Assembly (NCBI GenBank): GCA_022763165.1
Contig: JALEGO010000294.1
Coordinates: 1 to 13,324 of the forward strand
Length of the DNA stretch: 13,324 bases
Reading direction: 5' to 3'
DNA from: Flavobacteriales bacterium
Lineage (GTDB): Bacteria > Bacteroidota > Bacteroidia > Flavobacteriales_G > JALEGO01
Every line of letters starts with the position of its first letter. The first letter of the stretch is position 1. Shown here piece after piece: positions 1-12,393 of the stretch. The notes beneath the pieces are model-generated. The model did no database searches, was not told the origin of the DNA, and saw nothing but the letters and a program-made list of their open reading frames with translations. The translations under genes and the position numbers were made by a program.

Positions 1-2899
1 CTCCTTTTACATAACCTTCACTATATTTAGGCTGTGCATAGGTTTGAATTAACCCCAATAACTCTTTAGGTGTTAAAGTCAATAATGTGCTAATTCTGGC
101 AATTTGACCTTTCCACTGAATCTTCTCATTCTCTAAATCAGACAATAGTGTATGTGCTAAGTATTCCGCTCTATATATGTCTTGATTTTCCGATGTTAGT
201 GTTTGACCCCAAACCTCTTTTGTGCCATTGAAGTCCAAATCATTGACCTTTTCAAAGAAATCAGTTCCGGAGAGATGATAATACATATCAGAGTCTTTCA
301 ATACCATGGTCAAATCCAGTTTTTGCTTGTTGTAAGTAAACTGGTGCTTCCCAAATTTCACAATATCTTGACCATTGAGATACAGTTCGTTTTTATCTTT
401 AAGTTGCCTTAAAGCTTCCTCCTTTGCCGATTTTAGTTGACTCTGGATACGGTCCGCCTTCACCGAATCCCCCAAGTCCATCAGGCGCTTCACTATGTCA
501 CGTACCTTATCCACCATGATATCAGAAGCATAATAGCCGTTGATTTCACTCACCGTCATAAGCTCTGAAAGTTTATGATGAATACCTTTTAAAATTCGAT
601 CAGCAGAATTTGACAAGGCGGTTGTTTTTCGATTAATCTCTTCTACCAGAGTCAATTTCCTGGATTCAAAGGCATTGTAAATCTCTTCTCGTTTATCATG
701 AATAAGATCAGTAAACTCTTCAAATTCTGAAAATTTTCCTTCCAACTCTTCGAGTTGAATCATCAATTTATTGAGATACTCTTCGCATTTTTCCGGACTA
801 TCACTGACATCAAGATAATTCACAACACCTTGACTAATCAATTTGATTTGCGCATTAAACTCAGCCCTTCCTTCAAGCGAAAAGAGCTCTTTGCGTTTCT
901 GTTTAAGAATAGAATTTACTTGATTAAATTCTGCATATATTGAGCCGATGTGATCAACAATTTCAGTCGTTTTGGTAGGATCTGTAATTTTTAGATTGCT
1001 AACAATTTCAATTAACATCTCCAACTCTTTAGACGTATCAGAAATGTTTTCAGCAATGAGCTCAGCATCTGCATTTTTTGATACCCCTTCTATTTCTTTC
1101 CTTAGAGTTGCGACCTTCCCTTCATAGGGTTTAAGTGATTCATCTTGAAGCAGGAATTGAATACAATTCTCTGAAATGCCTTCCACCTGAGCCCCCAATG
1201 TTTCCTCCGTTTGATTTACAACATCCAACTCAACATACCGAAGCTCTTTTAAGGAAATGACTTCACCCCGAATGACTCGCAACTCAGATAATAGGTTTAC
1301 AAACTCATCAATATGTTCAAATGTTGAGCGTTTGATCTTCGAAATAATATCTTCCGCTTTTTGAAGCGTTTCAGAAGTTTGTTTTTTGGTACTCTTTTTG
1401 ATTTGAACAACCTTTTCAAACTCGCTAATTGCAGAGTTAGAAGTACCCTTTATATCCTCTAAAGGCTTACGCAATTCAAAAGCGTCTTTGTGGGTGAGCC
1501 AGTGGTAGGTATCAATAATATCAGTGCTCTTTTTGACAAGGTCAATATACAAGTTGTTGTAACTATCATCTTTCTCTATCAACTTGATGACATCTCGACA
1601 CTCCGCCATGGCCTTGACGATCTCTTTGTTGCCCAATTTGAATAAGTAGGAGTCTTGTTTTCCTTTGAGCTCAAAATCTGGGCCGATGAAGGGCGTTTGC
1701 CAAATCTGAATGGCATGATGCTTCTTCTGATCATCGTCACCTTTGAAGTATAATAGCTCTCCATTCTCAAGTAGTGTAAATCCATGACAGACAATTGGGG
1801 TTCCTACTGATTGTTCGATTAAATTATATGGCAGTAAAATATAAGTTCCAGAGCTGTTATTGTAAAATGTAAAAAGGTAATCCTCTCCATTTTGAGAGAC
1901 AATCCTTTTTTCGAATATCATATCTTCTTGCTGGTTATCAAATAGTTTGAACTCTCCAGTTTGCGCATAATATCCTTTCGAAAAAATAATCCCCTGGTTG
2001 TCCGGCAAGAAAATACAGCTATTCTCAAGCGCATCAATTCTTACTGCTTTTTCGATTTTCTCATTATAGACGATGTATCTGAAATCATCCTCTTTGTAAG
2101 GTTTAATTTTGAGGATAATTAAATTCTCAATGATAGCGTATTGAATGGCAGCATCACCTAGATTTTGATCCTTTTCATTGACAGGTTCAGAATATATTCC
2201 CAAACCTGAATCCGTATTGTCTTCAATTTTGATGGTAAGATCTCCACCAACGGTCTCTACAAATATCCGATCCTCAATTGAGATGTGTGGATGACGACCT
2301 GATCTGAACTGTTCCCTTTTAGGTTTCTGCCATTTGAATTCGTGCTGATTTGGAAATTTGAACTCATGATCGGACCGGTTGTCAATATACTTCAGTTTCC
2401 CATTGACTAAGGTCCATTTGAACGTTTTGATATCATCTTCTGTTTTTCCGACTTGGAACACCATAAATATGTTTACTCCAATTTGTGCGAATTTGACAAA
2501 CTGTGTATCACGGTAGTATTTGTAGAGATTAAGGAAGTCATCTACGAATTTTTTATCTTCAACGAATTTTAGGGAGGTTTCGTGAAAGGCGTTGTCTTTG
2601 TATGTGTACGCGCTGAAAACATCTGACAGTTTCATTTCCGATTTTAGTCCCATGTGCACATTATAACCAAATAAAAAGGTATCTCCGAGCATGATGATGT
2701 CTCGAGCAACGCAATTGTTTTTGGTTGTTACACGCTCTGTTGCGAGCAATTTGGTTTCTATGGCTCCAAAAACTTCTTTTCGAGCCTGATTAAGCTTCAA
2801 AAGACGCCCTGTAAGGTCCTTTCCCTCTTTTTTCAGACGGTTTTGAATGATTTCGTATGTTCCTTCTTCTAATATGATATTTTCGTTCTCTTCTGCCAT
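1..2899 (-). CDS. Giant uncharacterised protein. Only the N-terminal 966 codons are in the window; the C-terminus lies beyond position 1. Residues 1 to about 430 look beta-rich, followed by about 500 aa of alpha-helical, acidic, coiled-coil-like sequence. No Walker A motif was seen.
   Basis: Manual translation of the minus strand from ATG at 2897-2899 (context ccATATg) runs stop-free to position 2. The frame was checked codon-by-codon at both ends. The protein begins MAEENENIILEEGTYEIIQNRLKKEG... Within this span the ORF track shows no competing long ORF, only the off-frame 71-aa 1579..1794. The gene is missing from the track because no stop codon lies inside the window. Confidence 0.75.
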   Translation of the reverse strand, partial: MAEENENIILEEGTYEIIQNRLKKEGKDLTGRLLKLNQARKEVFGAIETKLLATERVTTKNNCVARDIIMLGDTFLFGYNVHMGLKSEMKLSDVFSAYTYKDNAFHETSLKFVEDKKFVDDFLNLYKYYRDTQFVKFAQIGVNIFMVFQVGKTEDDIKTFKWTLVNGKLKYIDNRSDHEFKFPNQHEFKWQKPKREQFRSGRHPHISIEDRIFVETVGGDLTIKIEDNTDSGLGIYSEPVNEKDQNLGDAAIQYAIIENLIILKIKPYKEDDFRYIVYNEKIEKAVRIDALENSCIFLPDNQGIIFSKGYYAQTGEFKLFDNQQEDMIFEKRIVSQNGEDYLFTFYNNSSGTYILLPYNLIEQSVGTPIVCHGFTLLENGELLYFKGDDDQKKHHAIQIWQTPFIGPDFELKGKQDSYLFKLGNKEIVKAMAECRDVIKLIEKDDSYNNLYIDLVKKSTDIIDTYHWLTHKDAFELRKPLEDIKGTSNSAISEFEKVVQIKKSTKKQTSETLQKAEDIISKIKRSTFEHIDEFVNLLSELRVIRGEVISLKELRYVELDVVNQTEETLGAQVEGISENCIQFLLQDESLKPYEGKVATLRKEIEGVSKNADAELIAENISDTSKELEMLIEIVSNLKITDPTKTTEIVDHIGSIYAEFNQVNSILKQKRKELFSLEGRAEFNAQIKLISQGVVNYLDVSDSPEKCEEYLNKLMIQLEELEGKFSEFEEFTDLIHDKREEIYNAFESRKLTLVEEINRKTTALSNSADRILKGIHHKLSELMTVSEINGYYASDIMVDKVRDIVKRLMDLGDSVKADRIQSQLKSAKEEALRQLKDKNELYLNGQDIVKFGKHQFTYNKQKLDLTMVLKDSDMYYHLSGTDFFEKVNDLDFNGTKEVWGQTLTSENQDIYRAEYLAHTLLSDLENEKIQWKGQIARISTLLTLTPKELLGLIQTYAQPKYSEGYVKG

Positions 2900-2928
2900 A
2901 TGTGTTTTTCAATTAAATCCTATTTTTT

Positions 2929-3025
2929 CGGTCTACACTTCATTAGACTCAGTGCAAGCTAGCTCAGCGTGACCGTGCAGTTTGCAGATGCCCTTAGCCT
3001 GACAAAGGGCTTTAGTTTCATTGCA
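2929..3025. repeat. REP-like palindromic intergenic element, copy A. It is a chimeric variant: left arm cttcattagactcag, right arm cttagcctgacaaagggcttt.
   Basis: It shares (g)gtctac(a/g)c, agctcagcgtgac and cctgac.aagggcttt(c)attt blocks with copies B and C, with an 11-bp insertion relative to them. Confidence 0.6.
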
Positions 3026-3057
3026 CTTAGCTCATATTTGGTCTACACCAGCGTAAG

Positions 3058-3135
3058 TTGGTCTACGCTTCGTCAAGCTCAGCGTGACAGAACACTTTCG
3101 TTGCTAATGACCTGAGACTAATGAAGTCTCATTTC
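3058..3135. repeat. REP-like palindromic element, copy B. Its right end overlaps the GIY-YIG stop codon.
   Basis: ttggtctacgcttcgtcaagctcagcgtgacagaacactttcgttgct is identical to copy C at about 45 of 47 positions. The distal arm cctgagactaatgaagtctcatttc has diverged. Confidence 0.7.
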
Positions 3136-3413
3136 TTATTCGACAATTCCTTTAACAATTCAATATTTCCATTTATCAAAGCTTCTTTTTTACTCCTTTT
3201 CAAACCCTTTATTCTATTTTCCCATTTAATTGCTTCGCTTTCTAAGCTGAAATTCTGAGAATAGACCAATTCTACCGGCCTTCGATTATAAGTATATGCT
3301 GATACAAATTTTCCTATTTGATGTTCATTCAATCGATTGGTTAAATCAGATGTACATCCAGTATAATATGAACCATCAGAGCATTTTAGTATGTATACGG
3401 TTAAATGTGGCAT
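3129..3413 (-). CDS. Small GIY-YIG nuclease family protein of 94 aa, YhbQ/UPF0213-like
   Basis: ORF track 94 aa begins MPHLTVYILKCSDGSYYTGCTSDLTNRLNEH. It carries the GIY-YIG hallmark (VYIL..GSYYTG...R...H) and the conserved downstream E/N region. Size is typical of stand-alone GIY-YIG proteins. Confidence 0.85.
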   Translation of the reverse strand: MPHLTVYILKCSDGSYYTGCTSDLTNRLNEHQIGKFVSAYTYNRRPVELVYSQNFSLESEAIKWENRIKGLKRSKKEALINGNIELLKELSNKK

Positions 3414-3420
3414 GCACTAT

Positions 3421-3500
3421 TTGGTCTACGCTTCGTCAAGCTCAGCGTGACAGAGCACTTTTGTTGCTGAAGTCCTGAGCCTGACGAAGGGCTTTCATTT
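3421..3500. repeat. REP-like palindromic element, copy C, carrying the best-preserved 15-bp inverted arms (cttcgtcaagctcag / ctgagcctgacgaag, 14 of 15 complementary)
   Basis: Direct repeat of copy B immediately upstream of the GIY-YIG gene. The internal inverted repeat can form a stem of about 15 bp with a loop of about 29 nt. Confidence 0.7.
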
Positions 3501-3529
3501 AATGTTTCTTTATTTGACAATTTACTCAT

Positions 3530-3575
3530 GACTCATATTTGGCCTACGCTCCCTCGCTTCGTTCTTTCTCTTAGC
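3530..3575. repeat. Partial REP-like copy D (ctcatatttggcctacgctccctcgcttcg...tagctcagg)
   Basis: It shares the ctcatatttgg(t/c)ctac(g/a)c leader seen at 3031-3049 and a degenerate tagctcag block. Confidence 0.4.
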
Positions 3576-3590
3576 TCAGGAACCTAAATC

Positions 3591-3971
3591 TTATACCAAT
3601 TCATTGGCCTTCAAATCCTCAAGAAAGCGTGCTTGAAGGTCTGACATAAAACCTTGAATCACATCAGCCTCGGATTTCTGGATGCCACTAGACTCTTTTG
3701 CTACTTCTTCTAAGATTTCAATAAAGAAATTGTAGGCGGGGTTTGGACCAACTTCTTTACATCTCTGGAGTGCTTTTTGATAAACATCTTCCAAGTCACC
3801 CTTTTTCTTTACCTCATAATCAAAGGACCATTTGATTTCCTGAGCCCAAGCATGATTCTTTAACATTTGAGAGAGTTTTTCCTTTTCCTCAGGTTGAATC
3901 ACTCCATCAGCAATACATACTGCGTATAGCAATTCACCTAGCGCATCATTTAATTTTTCTTGATCTGTCAT
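3591..3971 (-). CDS. TerB-like (tellurite-resistance TerB / DjlA N-terminal superfamily) small cytoplasmic protein, 126 aa
   Basis: Two helical repeats carry the TerB-type acidic motif: LLYAVCIADGVIQPEEKEKL and FIEILEEVAKESSGIQKSEADVI. Compare the TerB aADGeIxxEEk pattern. The assignment is by eye only. Confidence 0.55.
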   Translation of the reverse strand: MTDQEKLNDALGELLYAVCIADGVIQPEEKEKLSQMLKNHAWAQEIKWSFDYEVKKKGDLEDVYQKALQRCKEVGPNPAYNFFIEILEEVAKESSGIQKSEADVIQGFMSDLQARFLEDLKANELV

Positions 3972-4007
3972 ATTTAAAGTTTAGTTATATCGTTGTTTTA
4001 GTTGTTC

Positions 4008-4142
4008 CTAGTTATCTCGTTTTTCAAAATTCTCGAGTTTTTTAATCTTGGTTCTTCTGATCGCAAGAAATATCAGGGCAATCAAACAAAAGCCCATGAA
4101 AATACCTTGAGAACCCATAATCAATTTTGGTAACCATTCCAT
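4008..4142 (-). CDS. Hypothetical 44-aa single-pass membrane peptide (MEWLPKLIMGSQGIFMGFCLIALIFLAIRRTKIKKLENFEKRDN). Its ATG lies 1 nt after the ybjQ-like stop.
   Basis: Manual translation. The hydrophobic core GIFMGFCLIALIFLAI is followed by a basic stretch. The arrangement stop(TGA 4144-4146)-t-ATG(4140-4142) suggests translational coupling. The ORF is below the track's size cutoff. Confidence 0.3.
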   Translation of the reverse strand: MEWLPKLIMGSQGIFMGFCLIALIFLAIRRTKIKKLENFEKRDN

Positions 4143-4143
4143 A

Positions 4144-4458
4144 TCAACTCAGTTTTACAGCGGTTCCGTAGGCTAGTATTTCTGAACAACCTTGCATAAC
4201 CATTGAAGTAGTCAACCGGACATTGATTATAGCATCTGCTCCTAGTCTTTTTGCATCATCTTTCATTCTTTGGAGTGCCTGTTCCCTTGACTGAGCTTGA
4301 AGCTTAGTATACTCTTCAATTTCGCCACCAATTAGGTTTTTTAAGGCTGCAAAAATATCGCGACCAAAGTTTCTAGCTCTAACCGTACTTCCTCTGGCTA
4401 CCCCAAGTATTTGGGTGACACTTTTTTGAGGAATATTATCTGTTGTTGTAATTATCAT
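4144..4458 (-). CDS. YbjQ family protein (UPF0145/DUF74, heavy-metal-binding-like), 104 aa
   Basis: MIITTTDNIPQKSVTQILGVARGSTVRARNFGRDIFAALKNLIGGEIEEYTKL...ILAYGTAVKLS is collinear with the conserved YbjQ pattern M.vtTt..ieg..i.eylGvV.Ge.v.gan..rd.fa..rdivGGr...Y...l...R..A...m...A..lGAnAvv.vr.d...........v.a.GTAVkl. Confidence 0.85.
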   Translation of the reverse strand: MIITTTDNIPQKSVTQILGVARGSTVRARNFGRDIFAALKNLIGGEIEEYTKLQAQSREQALQRMKDDAKRLGADAIINVRLTTSMVMQGCSEILAYGTAVKLS

Positions 4459-4560
4459 TGTCGTGTATTTTTAGTTAAACAATAGGTCAACCAATCATTC
4501 TTTTCTTGGTTTCTTTTTGTCAGCGCTAGGGGTTGGAACGATATCCTTTTGGTTTTTAGT

Positions 4561-4630
4561 TGCTGGCACTTCGTCAGTACTGCGAAGTTATTTTGCCATC
4601 CTAAGCTTGACGAAGGATAGGCCTTCTAAC
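4561..4630. repeat. Degenerate copy (E) of the REP-like palindromic element (cacttcgtcag ... ctaagcttgacgaagg)
   Basis: It shares the cttcgtca(a)g / ct.agc.tgacgaagg arms with the copies at 2929-3500. A gaagg-atag-ccttc mini-hairpin follows at 4612-4626. Confidence 0.45.
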
Positions 4631-4654
4631 CAAAAGATAAAGCGGAAGACCCGA

Positions 4655-4682
4655 CCCCGATATCCTTAAGGACAAATCGGGG
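4655..4682 (-). terminator. GC-rich hairpin (ccccgat-N14-atcgggg, inner ccttaagg palindrome) 23 bp downstream of the flotillin stop. Possible terminator or attenuator on the minus strand; the following T-tract is weak (ctttatctttt).
   Basis: A 7-bp perfect stem seen directly in the sequence. The U-tract is not contiguous with the stem, so the assignment is tentative. Confidence 0.3.
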
Positions 4683-4704
4683 TAGCGCCCAAATCCTTCA
4701 TCCA

Positions 4705-6801
4705 TTAGTTGTTGATGAAATTTCTTGCTGGAAGATCAGATAGGCCAGCGTTTTTGGCCATAGTGTAAAGCTCTTCAAGCATTCCTTTTTGACCTCCATT
4801 ACTGGACTTACTTATCATTTTATAGAGTAAAGCTGACACAGTCAAGTTTTTAACATCATCTGAACTAATATTCAACTCTTTGATAAGATTTTGAATATTT
4901 TCCTTCAGGTTTCCTGAACCACCGTTGAGTAGTTGACTTTTCACCTCAGAAAGTGTCTCGCTATTGTCTATAAATCTGTCTACCATTTTCCCGTTTCCAA
5001 TGGCACCAACGAGTTTATCAAAGAATACTTGCTCACCACCTACGATGTCAATTTTCGCTGATTTAAGCGCTTGACTCATCACATCAGCTTGCGCAAAAGC
5101 GATGTCTTTTCCAACATTTACTTTAGCAAGATCCACTTCTTTTTCCTTTGCAAGTCTCAGTTTGAACTCTTCATGTTCTTTACCAGCTCCATCGAGTTTC
5201 TGCATCGCTTGAGCTTTTAACTCAATCACCTTCGCATCAATTGTTCCTTGCTTCTCAGAAGCACTTGCTAATGCCTCTTTGACCTCAGCCTCAGCATGAC
5301 CAAGTTTCTTGTCAGCCTCTGCTTGAGCATCAGCCTTTTTGCTGATACCATCGGCCTCAGCTTCGGCTGTTAATCTAATGATATCCGCATGAGCTTCACC
5401 ATCTTTCTTCTTAGCAAATGCTTTAGCTTCAATTACTTGCGCTTCAGATTTACCATGAGTCGCCTCTTTAACCGCTTCAGCTTCAGCTAAAATCTTGATC
5501 GCTTCAGCCTTCTGAATCGCAGATGCTTGTTCAGCTTCAGCATCGATAATTTTCTTTTTAGCATTGTATTCGGCAGCTTCTCTTTCAGCCTCAGCCTGCT
5601 TGATTCTCTCAACCATTTTGGCTTGAGCAGATTCTTCTGCCTTCTTAACGGCAACTGTTTTTTGTCGCTCTGCTGCGGCCAGTGCTCTTGTATCTTTGAT
5701 TTTCTCTTCCTCTTGAACAACAGTTTTCTCAATAGCAACTCTTTCGCGAATCACTTCTTGAATATTCTTACGCTCCTGTTCAACTGACTTCTCCTTTTCA
5801 ATCTGTGCTAGAGTAACAATTTTCTCTCGTTCAGTAGCCTCAAGAGCCCTGTCTTTTTCAACTCTCTCAAGTTCAACTGCATCCGCCTTTTCCTTGGCGC
5901 GTTGAGCCAACAATACTTCTCTTTGTTTATTTTGCTCTTTGACGAGTAATTCCTCATTAGCAGCAATACGTGCCTTCTCAGACTTCACTCTTTCCTCTTG
6001 TTGAACTTTAGCAGCTTCAGCCTCTTCTCTTGCTTTAACTGTGGCAATTTCACGTTTTTGTTTTTCCTCTTTTTCCGCTAACTGCCTATCAAGCTCTAGA
6101 ATCGCCTCTCTAGCTTCAACGTCTTGTTGTCTAATGATCTTTTCCTTGTCCCTTTCGATAAGATTGGCTTGAACCTTTTGTTTTGCCGTCAAATCGATGA
6201 TTTTCTTGATACCTTCAGCATCTAAAATATTTGCTTCGTCCAGAGCCTCAATTGGTGTCTGTTCTAAGTAGTCAATGGCAGCATCATCCATAATATAACC
6301 ATTCAGGTTTTTACCAATGGTTTGAATAATTTCAGATCTCAGTTTATCCCGTTCAGTATATAATTCGACAAAATCAAATTGCTTCCCTACTGTCTTAAGG
6401 GCTTCTGAGAATTTAGCCTCAAAAAGCTGATTTAAAGCTTCTTTTGAGGAGGCTCTTTCGCAACCAACAGATTGGGCAACTTTCTTTACATCTGAATGAC
6501 TTTCGTTCACCCTTACGAAGAAGGCCATTTTAATATCAGCGCGCATATTGTCTTTACATACAAGACCGTCTTTTCCCTCTCTTGAAATCACGATACTCTT
6601 TAATGAAATATCCATAACCTCCAGTTTGTGAAGCACGGGTATAACCAGCATGCCAGAGAATGACACTTTTACACCACCAATTCCCGTTCTTACTAAGGCT
6701 TGGCCCTGCTTGGCCTTCTTGTAGAATCTTGAAATTAAGGCGATGATTCCAAAAATGAACAGTATTACGATTACTGTTGCAACAATTACAGTTTGTGGCA
6801 T
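4705..6801 (-). CDS. Flotillin-like SPFH/band-7 protein (YqiK family), 698 aa. N-terminal TM helix, SPFH domain, long EA/K-rich coiled coil, C-terminal flotillin tail.
   Basis: The ORF track gives 698 aa. The N-terminus MPQTVIVATVIVILFIFGIIALISRFYKKAKQGQALVRTGIGG matches the YqiK/flotillin N-terminus. About 350 aa of REEAEAAK-type coiled coil follow. The gene sits immediately downstream of a YqiJ/NfeD-like gene, as in E. coli yqiJK. Confidence 0.9.
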   Translation of the reverse strand: MPQTVIVATVIVILFIFGIIALISRFYKKAKQGQALVRTGIGGVKVSFSGMLVIPVLHKLEVMDISLKSIVISREGKDGLVCKDNMRADIKMAFFVRVNESHSDVKKVAQSVGCERASSKEALNQLFEAKFSEALKTVGKQFDFVELYTERDKLRSEIIQTIGKNLNGYIMDDAAIDYLEQTPIEALDEANILDAEGIKKIIDLTAKQKVQANLIERDKEKIIRQQDVEAREAILELDRQLAEKEEKQKREIATVKAREEAEAAKVQQEERVKSEKARIAANEELLVKEQNKQREVLLAQRAKEKADAVELERVEKDRALEATEREKIVTLAQIEKEKSVEQERKNIQEVIRERVAIEKTVVQEEEKIKDTRALAAAERQKTVAVKKAEESAQAKMVERIKQAEAEREAAEYNAKKKIIDAEAEQASAIQKAEAIKILAEAEAVKEATHGKSEAQVIEAKAFAKKKDGEAHADIIRLTAEAEADGISKKADAQAEADKKLGHAEAEVKEALASASEKQGTIDAKVIELKAQAMQKLDGAGKEHEEFKLRLAKEKEVDLAKVNVGKDIAFAQADVMSQALKSAKIDIVGGEQVFFDKLVGAIGNGKMVDRFIDNSETLSEVKSQLLNGGSGNLKENIQNLIKELNISSDDVKNLTVSALLYKMISKSSNGGQKGMLEELYTMAKNAGLSDLPARNFINN

Positions 6802-6853
6802 AATTTAATAGTTTTAGTTTGTTAAAAAATTCGTTTTACAATAAAAATCAGTG

Positions 6854-7528
6854 CTATACGTAATGCTCATACGGCTCTACCAAATAGCATTCCTCCTGAT
6901 TGTCTTTTTCAATTACCAAAGCAGTTTGACCAGCCTTAAGCTCCATTTCCGGCTTCATTGCTTTGATATATATTAATATATGTGAGCCATCAGCGTCAAT
7001 TTCAGCTTGTCCTTTCATTTCAAAACTTGCTGGCAAGGTCACTTCACAGATTCTGCCTAAAATCTCCTTCTCTTCTGTGCCCTTATTCAAAGCCGCAAAA
7101 ACTTTTATAAATGGCATAGTCAAAACTTTTGCAATGAATAGGCAAACGATGAACGATGGTATCAGAATGGCAATACCGATAAGGAGTGTAGTATTTCCAA
7201 GAACATAATTTGCATTGACAACCATTAACCAAAGTGGTAAAGCAACAAAGCTCATAAATACCATTAGAGGGATTTTACCCAGATTGAAAAATCTCAAAAT
7301 GTTATTGATCCAAGATATGTCAGCCTCACCGTCAATGTCCCCAGCATCAACATTAGAATCAAATTCTGCATCCAAATCGATCTCCGCTTCCAAATCCAAA
7401 TCTATATCGATAAAATCCATATCTATTGCTCCAAAGATTACGATCACCCAGTATAGCACCACGAATAGTAAAAGCGCTGTGGGAATGATATTCGCTAAGG
7501 AAAATGATATGTCAATTAATTCTTTCAT
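6854..7528 (-). CDS. YqiJ family inner-membrane protein (DUF1449, NfeD-like partner of flotillin), 224 aa, with an acidic DIDLDLEAEIDLDAEFD insert
   Basis: The N-terminal TM segment is followed by the motif FNLGKIPLMVFMSFVALP (compare E. coli YqiJ LNIGRLPALVVLCLLAG). There are further TM helices and a C-terminal soluble beta-domain. The gene lies directly upstream of the flotillin gene. Confidence 0.8.
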   Translation of the reverse strand: MKELIDISFSLANIIPTALLLFVVLYWVIVIFGAIDMDFIDIDLDLEAEIDLDAEFDSNVDAGDIDGEADISWINNILRFFNLGKIPLMVFMSFVALPLWLMVVNANYVLGNTTLLIGIAILIPSFIVCLFIAKVLTMPFIKVFAALNKGTEEKEILGRICEVTLPASFEMKGQAEIDADGSHILIYIKAMKPEMELKAGQTALVIEKDNQEECYLVEPYEHYV

Positions 7529-7592
7529 ATTTAGTTTAAAGTTTAAAGCTGAAGGCTAAAGGTCTTCCATCAAAAAATGACTACAGGTTTAT

Positions 7593-8300
7593 TCAGCTAT
7601 TCAAACCCATTTTCTCCTTCAGTGCTGCTAAGGCGTCTGTTGCTGCTGTTTTTTCAGAACCTTCCAAAGCCTTATCAATTTCATCATCTACTGACCTGCT
7701 TTCATCTGCAATTTCACCATAAGCTTCTGCTAAAGCCTCAGATTCAGCAACTTTATCTCTCATTCTCTCCAACATAGCAATGGTATCAGAACCATCGATT
7801 TGCGCCATTTGCTTATTGAGTTTTTCAGTGGCCGCACTAACCTTCACTCTAGCCTTTAGCGTTTTCAGCTCGTTTTCCCATTTGCTGATATTGTGTCGAA
7901 TGCTCCTGATGTTTTGTTCTAGTTGAGAAATATTGCCATCAAATTTCTCACGTTCAGCTTTGGCCCTAGCAGCTTGCTGAATAGCCTCCTCCTTTTTGAC
8001 GAGCGCCTCAGTTGCAAGCCGATCAGCTTCAACAATATCCAAGTCTCCTTTTTGAGCCTTTTGCAATAAAAGCATTGCTTTGTTCTCATACTCTTTGGAC
8101 CGTTCAATTTCCTTCACCTCTTCGTTCTTAGCACGAATTTGCATTGCTTTAACTTCTGCCAAAGCATGAAGGCTTTTATCAAGATCTTCTTTCATATCTC
8201 GAATGCCCTGTTCGGTCAATTTAATTGGATTCTCAAGATGATCCACTGCAGCGTGGGCCTCAGCCTGGCCAATTTTAAAAAGTCTTTTGAAAATATTCAT
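7593..8300 (-). CDS. pspA: PspA/IM30 (Vipp1, phage-shock protein A) family protein, YjfJ-like, 235 aa
   Basis: MNIFKRLFKIGQAEAHAAVDHLENPIKLTEQGIRDMKEDL is the canonical PspA N-terminus (MGIFSRF..I..N.NALLDKAEDP.K...Q.IREME..L). The rest is coiled-coil. The gene sits 12 bp downstream of a YjfI-like gene. Confidence 0.9.
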   Translation of the reverse strand: MNIFKRLFKIGQAEAHAAVDHLENPIKLTEQGIRDMKEDLDKSLHALAEVKAMQIRAKNEEVKEIERSKEYENKAMLLLQKAQKGDLDIVEADRLATEALVKKEEAIQQAARAKAEREKFDGNISQLEQNIRSIRHNISKWENELKTLKARVKVSAATEKLNKQMAQIDGSDTIAMLERMRDKVAESEALAEAYGEIADESRSVDDEIDKALEGSEKTAATDALAALKEKMGLNS

Positions 8301-8312
8301 TGTAGTATATTT

Positions 8313-8705
8313 TTAATTTTTTGAGAACTCTATCAATTCCGATGAATACTCACTTAAGAGTAAACTCAAAGAATTGATGGATCCTTCTAATTCATTTAAG
8401 TCTAGATTTTCGAGTTGCAAAGTATCTCTAAAAATCAAGCGTTTTCCGCTTTCATCCAGAGCAAATGCCCCATGGACAATATCTCTGTTTTTCTGAAGGA
8501 GTTTGGTTAAAATCGTTTCATTCCCATTTAACTCTAAAATGAATTGCTCCATGATTAAAATGGGCTCCGCACATCCTATTACTAATCTGTTTATTCCAGC
8601 TTCTTCATCGTTTATTACTATTACTCCATCTTCAGCATTTTCATGGGTGATTGTGTAATCGAGATCGAGTAAATAGTTTTTCACTTTTTCAAAGTTGCTT
8701 TTCAT
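8313..8705 (-). CDS. YjfI/DUF2170 family protein (YbjN-like fold), 130 aa. This is the canonical upstream partner of the PspA homologue YjfJ.
   Basis: The 130-aa length and pattern GVIVIND.EAGINRLVIGCAEPILIMEQFI ... LLQKNRDIVHGAFALDESGKRLIFRDTLQLENLDLNEL parallel E. coli YjfI (LRITLAG.EELPVFVSLSD.QLVCAVNLW ... LLELNPAVPLSSFGKVGDAYVLFGAL). The yjfI-yjfJ order and spacing are conserved. Confidence 0.65.
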   Translation of the reverse strand: MKSNFEKVKNYLLDLDYTITHENAEDGVIVINDEEAGINRLVIGCAEPILIMEQFILELNGNETILTKLLQKNRDIVHGAFALDESGKRLIFRDTLQLENLDLNELEGSINSLSLLLSEYSSELIEFSKN

Positions 8706-11632: not shown

Positions 11633-12010
11633 ATGAATGTTTTGAGGATCATAATCGCTTTAATGTACTTGCTATCAACCAATGGCTTGGTTTTTAGTGC
11701 TCATTACTGTGCTGGCGACCTTAGTAAGGTTTCTATCGTGGAAAAGGACTTATCATGCTGTTGTGGCGATAAAGATATGTCTGATTGCTGCGAAAATGAC
11801 ACCAAGTTTCTGGAACAGTCAGCTCCAGGAGTAGATCTCAAATCCGAGCTGAAATTCATTTGCTTATCCGAAAGATTATATTCGACAGATTATTGTCTTC
11901 AAAAAATTGATGAGCAAGCGAATACTCAAGCAAACCCTTCTAATGGTCCACCAGGGGTCAGGAAGATCAGCTTTTTTCGCCTGTTTTCTTGTCCTCTACA
12001 TTATGCTTGA
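11633..12010 (+). CDS. HYC_CC_PP family small secreted Cys-rich protein, 125 aa
   Basis: A signal peptide (MNVLRIIIALMYLLSTNGLVFSA) is followed by HYC (AHYCAGD), CC (SCCCGD, DCCEND) and PP (NGPPGV) motifs in the order that names this Bacteroidota family. Placement next to an HMA-like protein and a TonB-dependent receptor is typical. The family assignment is from memory of NCBI annotation and has not been searched. Confidence 0.6.
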   Translation: MNVLRIIIALMYLLSTNGLVFSAHYCAGDLSKVSIVEKDLSCCCGDKDMSDCCENDTKFLEQSAPGVDLKSELKFICLSERLYSTDYCLQKIDEQANTQANPSNGPPGVRKISFFRLFSCPLHYA

Positions 12011-12060
12011 TAATCGATTTTTATTTCAAGAAATTATTTAAAAATCAAAATTGTTAAGAA

Positions 12061-12393
12061 ATGAATACTTTAAAATATATGTTTATCGGAATGTTCTGCT
12101 TCATAGGGCTTGCAGGGTATTCGGAAGTTAACACAGATACTCTTACAGTGAAAGGGTCTTGTGAAAAATGTGAAATGCAAATTGAGGAAGCAGCAATGCG
12201 TGTGAAAGGTGTCAAAGCCGCTGATTGGGAAAAGGGCTCAAATTTGCTAATCGTAAAATATAACCCTTCAAAAGTTGGCCTTGCCGAAATTGACAAGGCT
12301 GTTCAGGGCTCACAACATTGTGCTCCAATGAAGTCTTGTGGAGCGGCAACAAAAGGTTGCTGCAAATCTAAAGCATCTCCAAAGAAGGAATAG
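12061..12393 (+). CDS. Heavy-metal-associated (HMA)-like domain protein with a variant metal-binding motif (GSCEKCE) and a Cys-rich C-terminal tail (HCAPMKSCGAATKGCCKSK); signal peptide present
   Basis: TLTVKGSCEKCEMQIEEAAMRVKGVKAADWEKGSNLLIVKY resembles the HMA beta-alpha-beta-beta-alpha-beta core (compare GMTCxxC ... V..v.vd...g...V) but with SCxxC. Confidence 0.55.
   Translation: MNTLKYMFIGMFCFIGLAGYSEVNTDTLTVKGSCEKCEMQIEEAAMRVKGVKAADWEKGSNLLIVKYNPSKVGLAEIDKAVQGSQHCAPMKSCGAATKGCCKSKASPKKE

Follow-up and report, generated by a model that had tools for sequence, protein, structure and literature searches.

The closest described counterparts of the locus considered here belong to the Ssn family of nucleases, which are single-domain GIY-YIG proteins of ~94 aa (CDD cd10448) and include SsnA of Neisseria meningitidis (NMV_0044, 94 aa; Chenal et al. 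2025, Nat Commun, PMC11893778). The ssn genes are flanked by hairpin repeats, called NTS in Neisseria (CGTCATTCCCGCGMAVGCGGGAATCYRG) and SRM generally, and 81% of SRM-rich genomes encode an Ssn protein. Binding by four purified homologues is restricted to the hairpin in single-stranded DNA (ssDNA) and to one of its strands, with a cut made a few nucleotides upstream of it. Cleavage depends critically on the nucleotides immediately 5' of the palindrome, the identity of the loop is dispensable, loop extensions are tolerated and SsnA does not bind RNA; the authors liken the NTS-ssnA-NTS arrangement to an insertion sequence (IS) and to the pairing of repetitive extragenic palindromic (REP) sequences with REP-associated tyrosine transposases (RAYTs) (PMC11893778). 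The same repeats had been catalogued previously as CGTC-tagged REPs found in five phyla including Bacteroidetes, among them Neisseria dRS3 and Rickettsia RPE, and no dedicated enzyme was found for them (Di Nocera et al. 2013, BMC Genomics, PMC3733652). Here, we describe a gene for a 94-aa GIY-YIG protein lying amid short tagged hairpins in a 13,324 bp contig from the metagenome-assembled genome of a Flavobacteriales bacterium (GenBank JALEGO010000294.1, assembly GCA_022763165.1). The whole of this stretch is referred to below as the window, and counts of repeats in the source genome cover this contig alone.

In our judgement, the locus is probably an Ssn-type nuclease/hairpin-repeat pair, a reading to which we assign a probability of about 0.75, and the assignment is based on protein size, domain, residues and hairpin architecture. 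The GIY-YIG fold that had been proposed for the 94-aa gene in a first-pass annotation is borne out by the Pfam match (Table 1) and by an AlphaFold2 model that forms one compact GIY-YIG domain (pLDDT 91.2), for which Foldseek returned UPF0213, Slx1 and the GIY-YIG domains of UvrC. Alignments of 10 and of 48 homologues show no variation at residues Y7, Y17, R27, H31 and E65 and, as judged from the sequence, the catalytic residues are intact. The protein is 100% identical to a 'GIY-YIG nuclease family protein' in a Flavobacteriales metagenome-assembled genome (MAG) at NCBI; no NCBIfam model was matched, and an exact-protein look-up of the 94-aa sequence returned no called gene on record. A GIY-YIG homing endonuclease of the I-TevI or Seg type was considered and rejected, as the protein is a single 94-aa domain, there is no intron or Rfam family at the locus, TIGR01453 was not matched and the context is chromosomal.

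The repeats around the gene, in the region 2930-3584, comprise two intact copies, one composite copy and several degenerate ones (Table 1). The 15 nt arm CTTCGTCARGCTCAG, with up to 3 mismatches allowed, has 9 matches in the window against 0.46 expected, seven of them within 2938-3489 and one at 4601, and the tail GGTCTACRC occurs five times, always within 2930-3549. The repeats are thus present far above chance in both intergenic flanks, where the first-pass annotation had placed them. Weak arm matches at 5290, 8969, 9154 and 10259 lie inside coding sequence and were taken as chance. Copies B (3058-3126) and C (3421-3489) are, as had been claimed, near-identical direct repeats that bracket the gene (88% identity over 69 nt, with the initial ~33 nt identical), and B does overlap the stop codon, its degenerate right arm covering the TGA at 3129-3131. 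A further copy that had been reported at 4561-4630 also exists, but its orientation is inverted (arms 3053-3100 and 4583-4630, 71% complementary).

Table 1. Hairpin units, genes and other features of the window. Units U and P are the left and right parts, respectively, of copies A to C
Feature	Coordinates	Strand	Sequence or match	Position and remarks
DUF3686 'DNA repair ATPase', large	starts 2899, runs off contig end	-		
Lineage-specific ~1.8-kb segment	2900..4704	-		Inside conserved PspA-YbjN-flotillin-like-DUF3686 cluster
U3, composite unit (copy A)	2930..2974	-	GGTCA-CGCT-GAGC-(20-nt loop insert)-TGA-AGTG-TAGACC	Stem pairing kept via one G·T; 156 nt downstream of GIY-YIG gene; tail end 30 nt from DUF3686 start
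P3, degenerate partner (copy A)	2987..3013	+	CCCT/AGGG stem intact	Tag and loop mutated
Unit fragment	3040..3057	-	3' stem and TAGACC tail only	
U2, intact unit (copy B)	3058..3089	-	Same as U1	Sense strand of GIY-YIG gene, 41 nt downstream of its stop codon
P2, degenerate partner (copy B)	3108..3131	+	TGAC-CTGAGACTAATGAAG-TCTCA	3 mismatches to arm; own 7-bp hairpin
GIY-YIG nuclease gene, 94 aa, single-domain	3129..3413	-	Pfam PF01541, E = 1.5e-15, residues 5-76	
U1-spanning stretch	3456-3418	-	GCTCTGTCACGCTGAGCTTGACGAAGCGTAGACCAAATA	
U1, intact unit (copy C)	3421..3452	-	TGTCA-CGCT-GAGCTTGACGA-AGCG-TAGACCAA	Sense strand of GIY-YIG gene; hairpin core 3429-3451, 16 nt upstream of its ATG; TAGACCAA tail extends unit to 3421
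P1, tag-less partner (copy C)	3470..3500	+	AAG-TCCT-GAGCCTGACGA-AGGG-CTTTCATTT	
Degenerate unit D, tag lost	3539..3584	-	CCTGAGC..CGAAGCG..AGCG-TAGGCC	Directly downstream of TerB-like gene stop (3591)
TerB-like gene	3591-3971	-		
Hydrophobic 44-aa ORF	4008-4142	-	MEWLPKLIMGSQGIFMGFCLIALIFLAIRRTKIKKLENFEKRDN	Fills gap between YbjQ and TerB-like genes
YbjQ	4144-4458	-		
Flavo-1-like hairpin (RF01705)	4514..4660	+	27.3 bits vs gathering score 42, E = 0.03	
Dimer E, diverged	4567..4623	+	T-GCCA-TCCT-AAGCTTGACGA-AGGA-TAGGCC (unit 4594-4623)	Partner arm 4567-4588; orientation opposite to U1-U3
Coiled-coil protein, 698 aa	4705-6801	-		
224-aa membrane protein, PspA, YbjN/CesT-like protein	beyond the 698-aa gene, in order of rising coordinate	-		

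The palindromic element of about 80 bp in the first-pass annotation stands for copy C, which does fold in this way, but the true unit is a tagged hairpin of ~30 nt and the 80 bp form is a dimer. In copy C, U1 and P1 make up the palindrome as an inverted heterodimer, and this arrangement resembles the two REPs of a bacterial interspersed mosaic element (BIME). Copy C is the only one that folds as a complete palindrome (-16.5 to -17 kcal/mol as DNA, z about -3.5; z -3.1 to -4.4 as RNA for the hairpin 3415-3510), and copies A, B and D are half, composite or degenerate. In the predicted DNA fold of U1, GTCACGCT is paired with AGCGT-A-GAC. The unit at 4594-4623 in dimer E is the single copy in the contig outside the main repeat locus, and its tag and tail have changed from GTC/GAC to GCC/GGC, which is a compensatory change.

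Alignment of the repeats found around GIY-YIG homologues of 49-65% identity gave the basic unit of ~30 nt as T-GTCA-NN-CT-GAG(C)-(variable loop)-(T/C)GA-AG-NN-T. The variable loop is about 5 to 60 nt long, with inserts of 3 to 60 nt across units, and the two NN dinucleotides are mutually complementary. In the lineage of the window, the GTC tag is also able to pair with the GAC of the TAGACC tail, and the conserved G-A...G-A positions of the stem could form a tandem G·A step.

Covariation was examined by scanning one genome per species (185,579 species) with the pattern GTCANNCTGAGCTTGWCGAAG, in which GTC(A) is fixed by the pattern itself. At least 120 stretches matched, compared to a chance expectation roughly estimated at below ten, and the matches listed include Bacteroidota, Eremiobacterota/Vulcanimicrobiota, Nitrospirota, Verrucomicrobiota, Patescibacteria, Chloroflexota, Calditrichota, Ignavibacteria and others. 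Among the 152 units in the matches listed, pair 5-23 is Watson-Crick in 137 (G·T in 9, A·C in 4) and pair 6-22 in 143 (G·T in 5, A·C in 1), 12 distinct stems with full pairing are represented, and there is no conservation outside the unit boundaries. When the non-redundant units from these matches were considered, both variable pairs were Watson-Crick in 116 of 137, and shuffling gave 19.0±4.0 (maximum 32). On the tagged strand, G·T outnumbers A·C by 14 to 5 among the same matches and hence the tagged strand appears to be the one that folds. A different arrangement was seen in a Candidatus Limnocylindria MAG, where 13 units (CTGTCATGCTGAGCTTGTCGAAGCATCCGT) are arrayed head-to-tail with a strict 30-nt period (L122, 3270-3640), forming a tandem array and not the usual inverted dimers.

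Related hairpins surround GIY-YIG homologues of 41-65% identity in eight other lineages (L001-3, L004, L005-8, L009 from Robertkochia, L010 from Pustulibacterium, L031 from Eremiobacterota, L050 from Lutibacter and L134 from Methylobacterium), and the linked loci fall in the Bacteroidota, Eremiobacterota and Alphaproteobacteria. The Lutibacter homologue is a 34% tblastn match, and its locus has a single unit. Though the homologue loci examined span 4-20 kb, every unit in the unit-bearing loci is within 800 nt of the gene. This applies to 3/3 units in the window, 14/14 in L002, which has two gene copies, 2/2 in L004, 3/3 in L006, 9/9 and 8/8 in the 20-kb loci L009 and L010, 7/7 in L031, 1/1 in L050 and 2/2 in L134. 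Units were absent from six unrelated loci (~80 kb in total) and from 15 more distant homologues on viral contigs. Related hairpins are therefore neither confined to the window nor separate from GIY-YIG genes elsewhere, and the motif is widespread. The gene was present in only 2 of 120 motif-centred 8-kb stretches among the matches listed; as the gene is always amid repeats and most repeats are elsewhere, the distribution is of the REP/RAYT type. The suggestion in the first-pass annotation of a repeat-associated GIY-YIG nuclease analogous to a REP/RAYT pair thus draws support from other genomes as well as from the Ssn family, though the existence of that family (PMC11893778) means that the unit can no longer be called uncharacterised.

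Three observations on the homologous loci were made in passing. At the Methylobacterium bullatum locus (L134, 2900-3420), where the homologue shares 49% identity, the units are of the form CTCA-TCCT-GAGG...CTCGA-AGGA with G+C-rich long loop inserts, and thus the tag is CTCA in place of GTCA while the architecture is otherwise alike. In L002/L003 (1-5200), two gene copies share 98% identity over 300 nt and flanks are shuffled between the copies; the 14 units there are of three sub-types, some of them with hairpins of 20 to 47 nt inserted in the loop. A sizeable proportion of the closest GIY-YIG homologues come solely from contigs of <3 kb, consistent with assemblies breaking at the flanking repeats.

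Further searches returned little. The exact 23-mer GGTCTACGCTTCGTCARGCTCAG had no match among the 185,579 species representatives, a set that lacks the source species or variant. IMG/VR had no match to the full-hairpin pattern. A metagenome scan with the lineage-specific tail CTGAGCTTGACGAAGNNTAGACC gave two weak matches, one within a coding ORF and one tag-less, neither of which was informative.

Compared to the Ssn/SRM pairs, the locus has a protein of the same size with a single GIY-YIG domain (<150 aa and no extra DNA-binding domain) and the catalytic residues, a palindrome that starts A...T and is immediately preceded on its 5' side by a GTC(A) tag, and a directional unit of ~30 nt. The gene is flanked on both sides by GTC-tagged hairpins, the loop is tolerant of insertions, inverted dimers and clusters are seen, and in other genomes further copies are scattered through intergenic DNA. 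The loop inserts of 3 to 60 nt fit with the loop tolerance reported previously (PMC11893778). However, the stem of the present units consists of NNCT/AGNN and a conserved GAGC...CGA segment, whereas that of the SRM is 6-9 bp and G+C-rich, the tag is TGTC, not CGTC, and in the window lineage it can pair with the TAGACC tail. The host phylum, Bacteroidota, is absent from the main text of PMC11893778. The CGTC-tagged REPs (PMC3733652) are likewise short tagged stem-loops in which the stem starts A...T and the unpaired tails are short, with frequent head-to-head or tail-to-tail dimers that are often heterodimers, and they are mainly found between co-directional and convergent genes, but they have 4-5 nt loops and continuous stems, and the units here have a TGTC tag and an interrupted stem. 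The REP/RAYT systems (REPtrons) and BIMEs share with this locus a small nuclease-type gene bracketed by genome-scattered hairpins, inverted pairs of which form larger palindromes, and, by analogy, an enzyme that would target an ssDNA hairpin. RAYTs, in contrast, are Y1 (HUH) transposases of the IS200/IS605 type that act with GTAG-tagged REPs, whereas the fold here is GIY-YIG and the tag TGTC, and there is no Y1 transposase in the window.

Several findings weigh against the assignment to an Ssn-type pair. The published SRM pattern, HGTCWYN(0-2)YYVSBRHN(0-5)WNVSBRGN(0-2)RNCYNB, sought within 500 bp on both sides of the gene, has no match in the window or beside any homologue, including when its two S positions were relaxed, and its 10 matches in 1.02 Mb of loci are scattered; the pattern misses these units because it expects a continuous G+C-rich stem. 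Across the 152 units in the matches listed, GTCA is preceded by T 117 times, by C 20 times, by A 11 times and by G 4 times, so that the usual base is T instead of C. The stability of a single unit by nearest-neighbour calculation is marginal (about -5 kcal/mol, z about -1), and a close homologue from Chryseobacterium (P0068, 56% identity) has no units. In addition, the nearest solved relatives of the protein are members of UPF0213, namely BH0048 (E = 2e-16) and EF2693 (4e-11), at 43-45% identity, and no Ssn structure is present in the PDB. We know of no report that associates hairpins with UPF0213, a sister family.

These last relationships raise the question of whether the protein is simply an ordinary housekeeping nuclease of the UPF0213/YhbQ/YazA type that happens to lie in a repeat-rich intergenic region. 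Members of UPF0213 (E. coli YhbQ, B. subtilis YazA, BH0048 with structure 1ZG2 and EF2693 with structure 1YWL) are stand-alone GIY-YIG proteins of ~100 aa with the same predicted fold and ~38-46% identity, and the identity to B. subtilis YazA is 45% by tblastn and 38% in the multiple alignment. However, an incidental association does not sit well with hairpins that flank homologues in nine independent lineages, all of those units being within 800 nt of the gene, or with a chance expectation near zero. The B. subtilis yazA gene (L135, the sole UPF0213 locus examined) is in a housekeeping operon, trmNF-yazA-rsmI, where there are no hairpin units, and the viral homologues also lack them. We therefore regard this explanation as very improbable.

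If the locus is an Ssn-type pair, by analogy with the purified homologues the 94-aa protein would most likely recognise T-GTCA-NNCT-GAGC(loop)CGA-AGNN-T once the tagged strand becomes single-stranded, as may happen in DNA uptake, replication or repair, and would then most likely nick the tagged strand a few nucleotides 5' of the hairpin. The gene would thus be positioned between copies of its own target, with two intact units on its sense strand, each having a degenerate inverted partner with which it would make up a BIME-like palindrome of ~80 bp. That such a pair limits or shapes recombination, or spreads the repeats, can be suggested by homology and analogy only.

The positions of the units relative to genes bear on whether the hairpins might act instead at the level of RNA, as REP-like terminators, mRNA stabilisers or regulators of the flanking genes, including the GIY-YIG gene, with the nuclease not being their ligand. 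Among the matches listed, 83 of 91 units in low-GC loci are intergenic, 17 units are between convergent genes versus 3 between divergent genes, and those between co-directional genes are sense in 31 cases and antisense in 18. Units are therefore enriched downstream of genes, as an RNA role would predict. The wobble bias also fits with a tagged strand that folds, and for U1-U3 this strand corresponds to the mRNA. RNA functions were proposed for tagged REPs by Di Nocera et al. 2013 (PMC3733652). Yet such a role leaves unexplained both the clustering around one small nuclease gene across phyla and the conservation of an unpaired GTC tag and loop alongside a covarying stem. On the gene strand the units are not followed by a T-tract, no Rfam family was matched, and the finding that SsnA does not bind RNA (PMC11893778) is also contrary to it, and hence we consider an RNA-level function highly unlikely. 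An Rfam scan of the window and four homologous loci found no family over the repeats, and a structured-RNA family or intron was ruled out on this basis. A hammerhead-like reading of CUGAG...CGAAG was also rejected, since the core GA and GAAA elements are missing from the sequence. A scan for sigma-70 promoters and intrinsic terminators found nothing above background that would explain the units, the consensus used being unsuited to Bacteroidota.

The genes in the window from 1 to 8705 are all on the minus strand, and the GIY-YIG gene, together with YbjQ, the 44-aa ORF, which may encode a small membrane protein, the TerB-like gene and every repeat copy, is contained in the lineage-specific segment 2900-4704 (Table 1). 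The units nearest the two ends of this segment, U3 (tail at 2930) and the unit in dimer E (tail at 4623), are in opposite orientation with their tails outward. Two relatives, Tenacibaculum sp. SG-28 (L142) and an ENA contig (L143), lack such a segment: 128-155 nt separate the ~700-aa gene from DUF3686, which comes directly after it, and no hairpin units are found within 20 kb. The full order, helix-turn-helix (HTH) | YbjN-PspA-~238 aa-~700 aa-DUF3686-AAA, is kept in L142, whereas L143 includes only ~700 aa-DUF3686-AAA. The comparison is suggestive of a repeat-associated insertion of 2900-4704, as seen against two relatives with 55-58% protein identity. The DUF3686 synteny provided this empty-site comparison, but that of the TerB-like gene did not because its homologues are in unrelated contexts. 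In addition, the Flavo-1-like hairpin has in its apical loop a 73-nt insert that corresponds to dimer E, and it looks like a repeat dimer inserted in the loop of another structured element. A bona fide Flavo-1 (49.6 bits) is present in L006 (740-822), ~4 kb from the GIY-YIG gene. The contig L143 also includes a 300-aa gene (16838-17740) with a faint Pfam match to Y1_Tnp (IS200/IS605-like), ~6 kb from the DUF3686 cluster.

This local history raises the possibility that the locus is, or was formerly, an autonomous mobile element, with the GIY-YIG protein serving both a repeat-gene-repeat unit and solo hairpins as their transposase or homing nuclease, in the manner suggested for REPtrons and RAYTs. 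Such a unit, perhaps with its neighbours, would have entered the psp-like operon, and this is compatible with an Ssn-type pair, to which it would add mobility. The absence of 2900-4704 from the cluster in the two relatives, the opposed units with outward tails at its ends and the dimer in the Flavo-1-like loop are in keeping with this, as are the unrelated gene context in every lineage, the L002/L003 copies that remain 98% identical over 300 nt with shuffled flanks, and the many close homologues on contigs of <3 kb, as if assemblies break at the repeats. An IS-like hypothesis was also raised by Chenal et al. (PMC11893778). However, the orientation of the flanking units relative to the gene differs between lineages (sense/antisense, antisense/sense, all-antisense or all-sense), and this variation argues against a canonical element with terminal inverted repeats. 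A target-site duplication was not found, rejoining of DNA strands is not a known activity of GIY-YIG enzymes, and the relatives with the apparent empty site share only 55-58% protein identity. Mobility of this kind is consequently unlikely in our view, and the terms mobile unit and recombination hotspot that were applied to the locus in the first-pass annotation amount to inference.

A broader possibility combines two propositions. The first is that TGTCA-NNCT-GAGC...CGA-AGNN represents a distinct REP superfamily of many phyla that was missed by the SRM definitions and is read by a dedicated Ssn-like clade. The second is that opposed pairs of units bracket and move gene cassettes, the 1.8-kb YbjQ/TerB-like/GIY-YIG segment in the psp-like operon being one such cassette and the dimer in the Flavo-1 loop a further insertion. 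We think it quite unlikely that both hold; if they did, this would be an active ssDNA-based gene-mobilising element, going beyond a nuclease and its binding sites.

This kind of system has been known since 2025, and the locus is best filed as a Bacteroidota-type member of the Ssn/hairpin group with a variant of the hairpin that evades the published pattern. The Ssn-type reading opens no new category but would extend the recent pairing of nuclease and hairpin to the Flavobacteriales, and would assign to an Ssn-type system, despite the SRM-pattern misses, a hairpin that is very common in Bacteroidota, Eremiobacterota, Chloroflexota and other phyla. For annotation, it is relevant that the hairpins are chiefly intergenic and that the closest homologues are often on very short contigs, where assemblies appear to break at the repeats. 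For biotechnology, each Ssn/hairpin pair is a potential site-specific ssDNA nuclease, and the recognition element of this clade would combine a loop that accepts insertions with a 2-bp stem segment that can vary freely.

Elsewhere in the window, two adjoining Cys-rich ORFs (125 and 110 aa; 11633-12393, plus strand) follow a predicted permease, and their products may bind metal.

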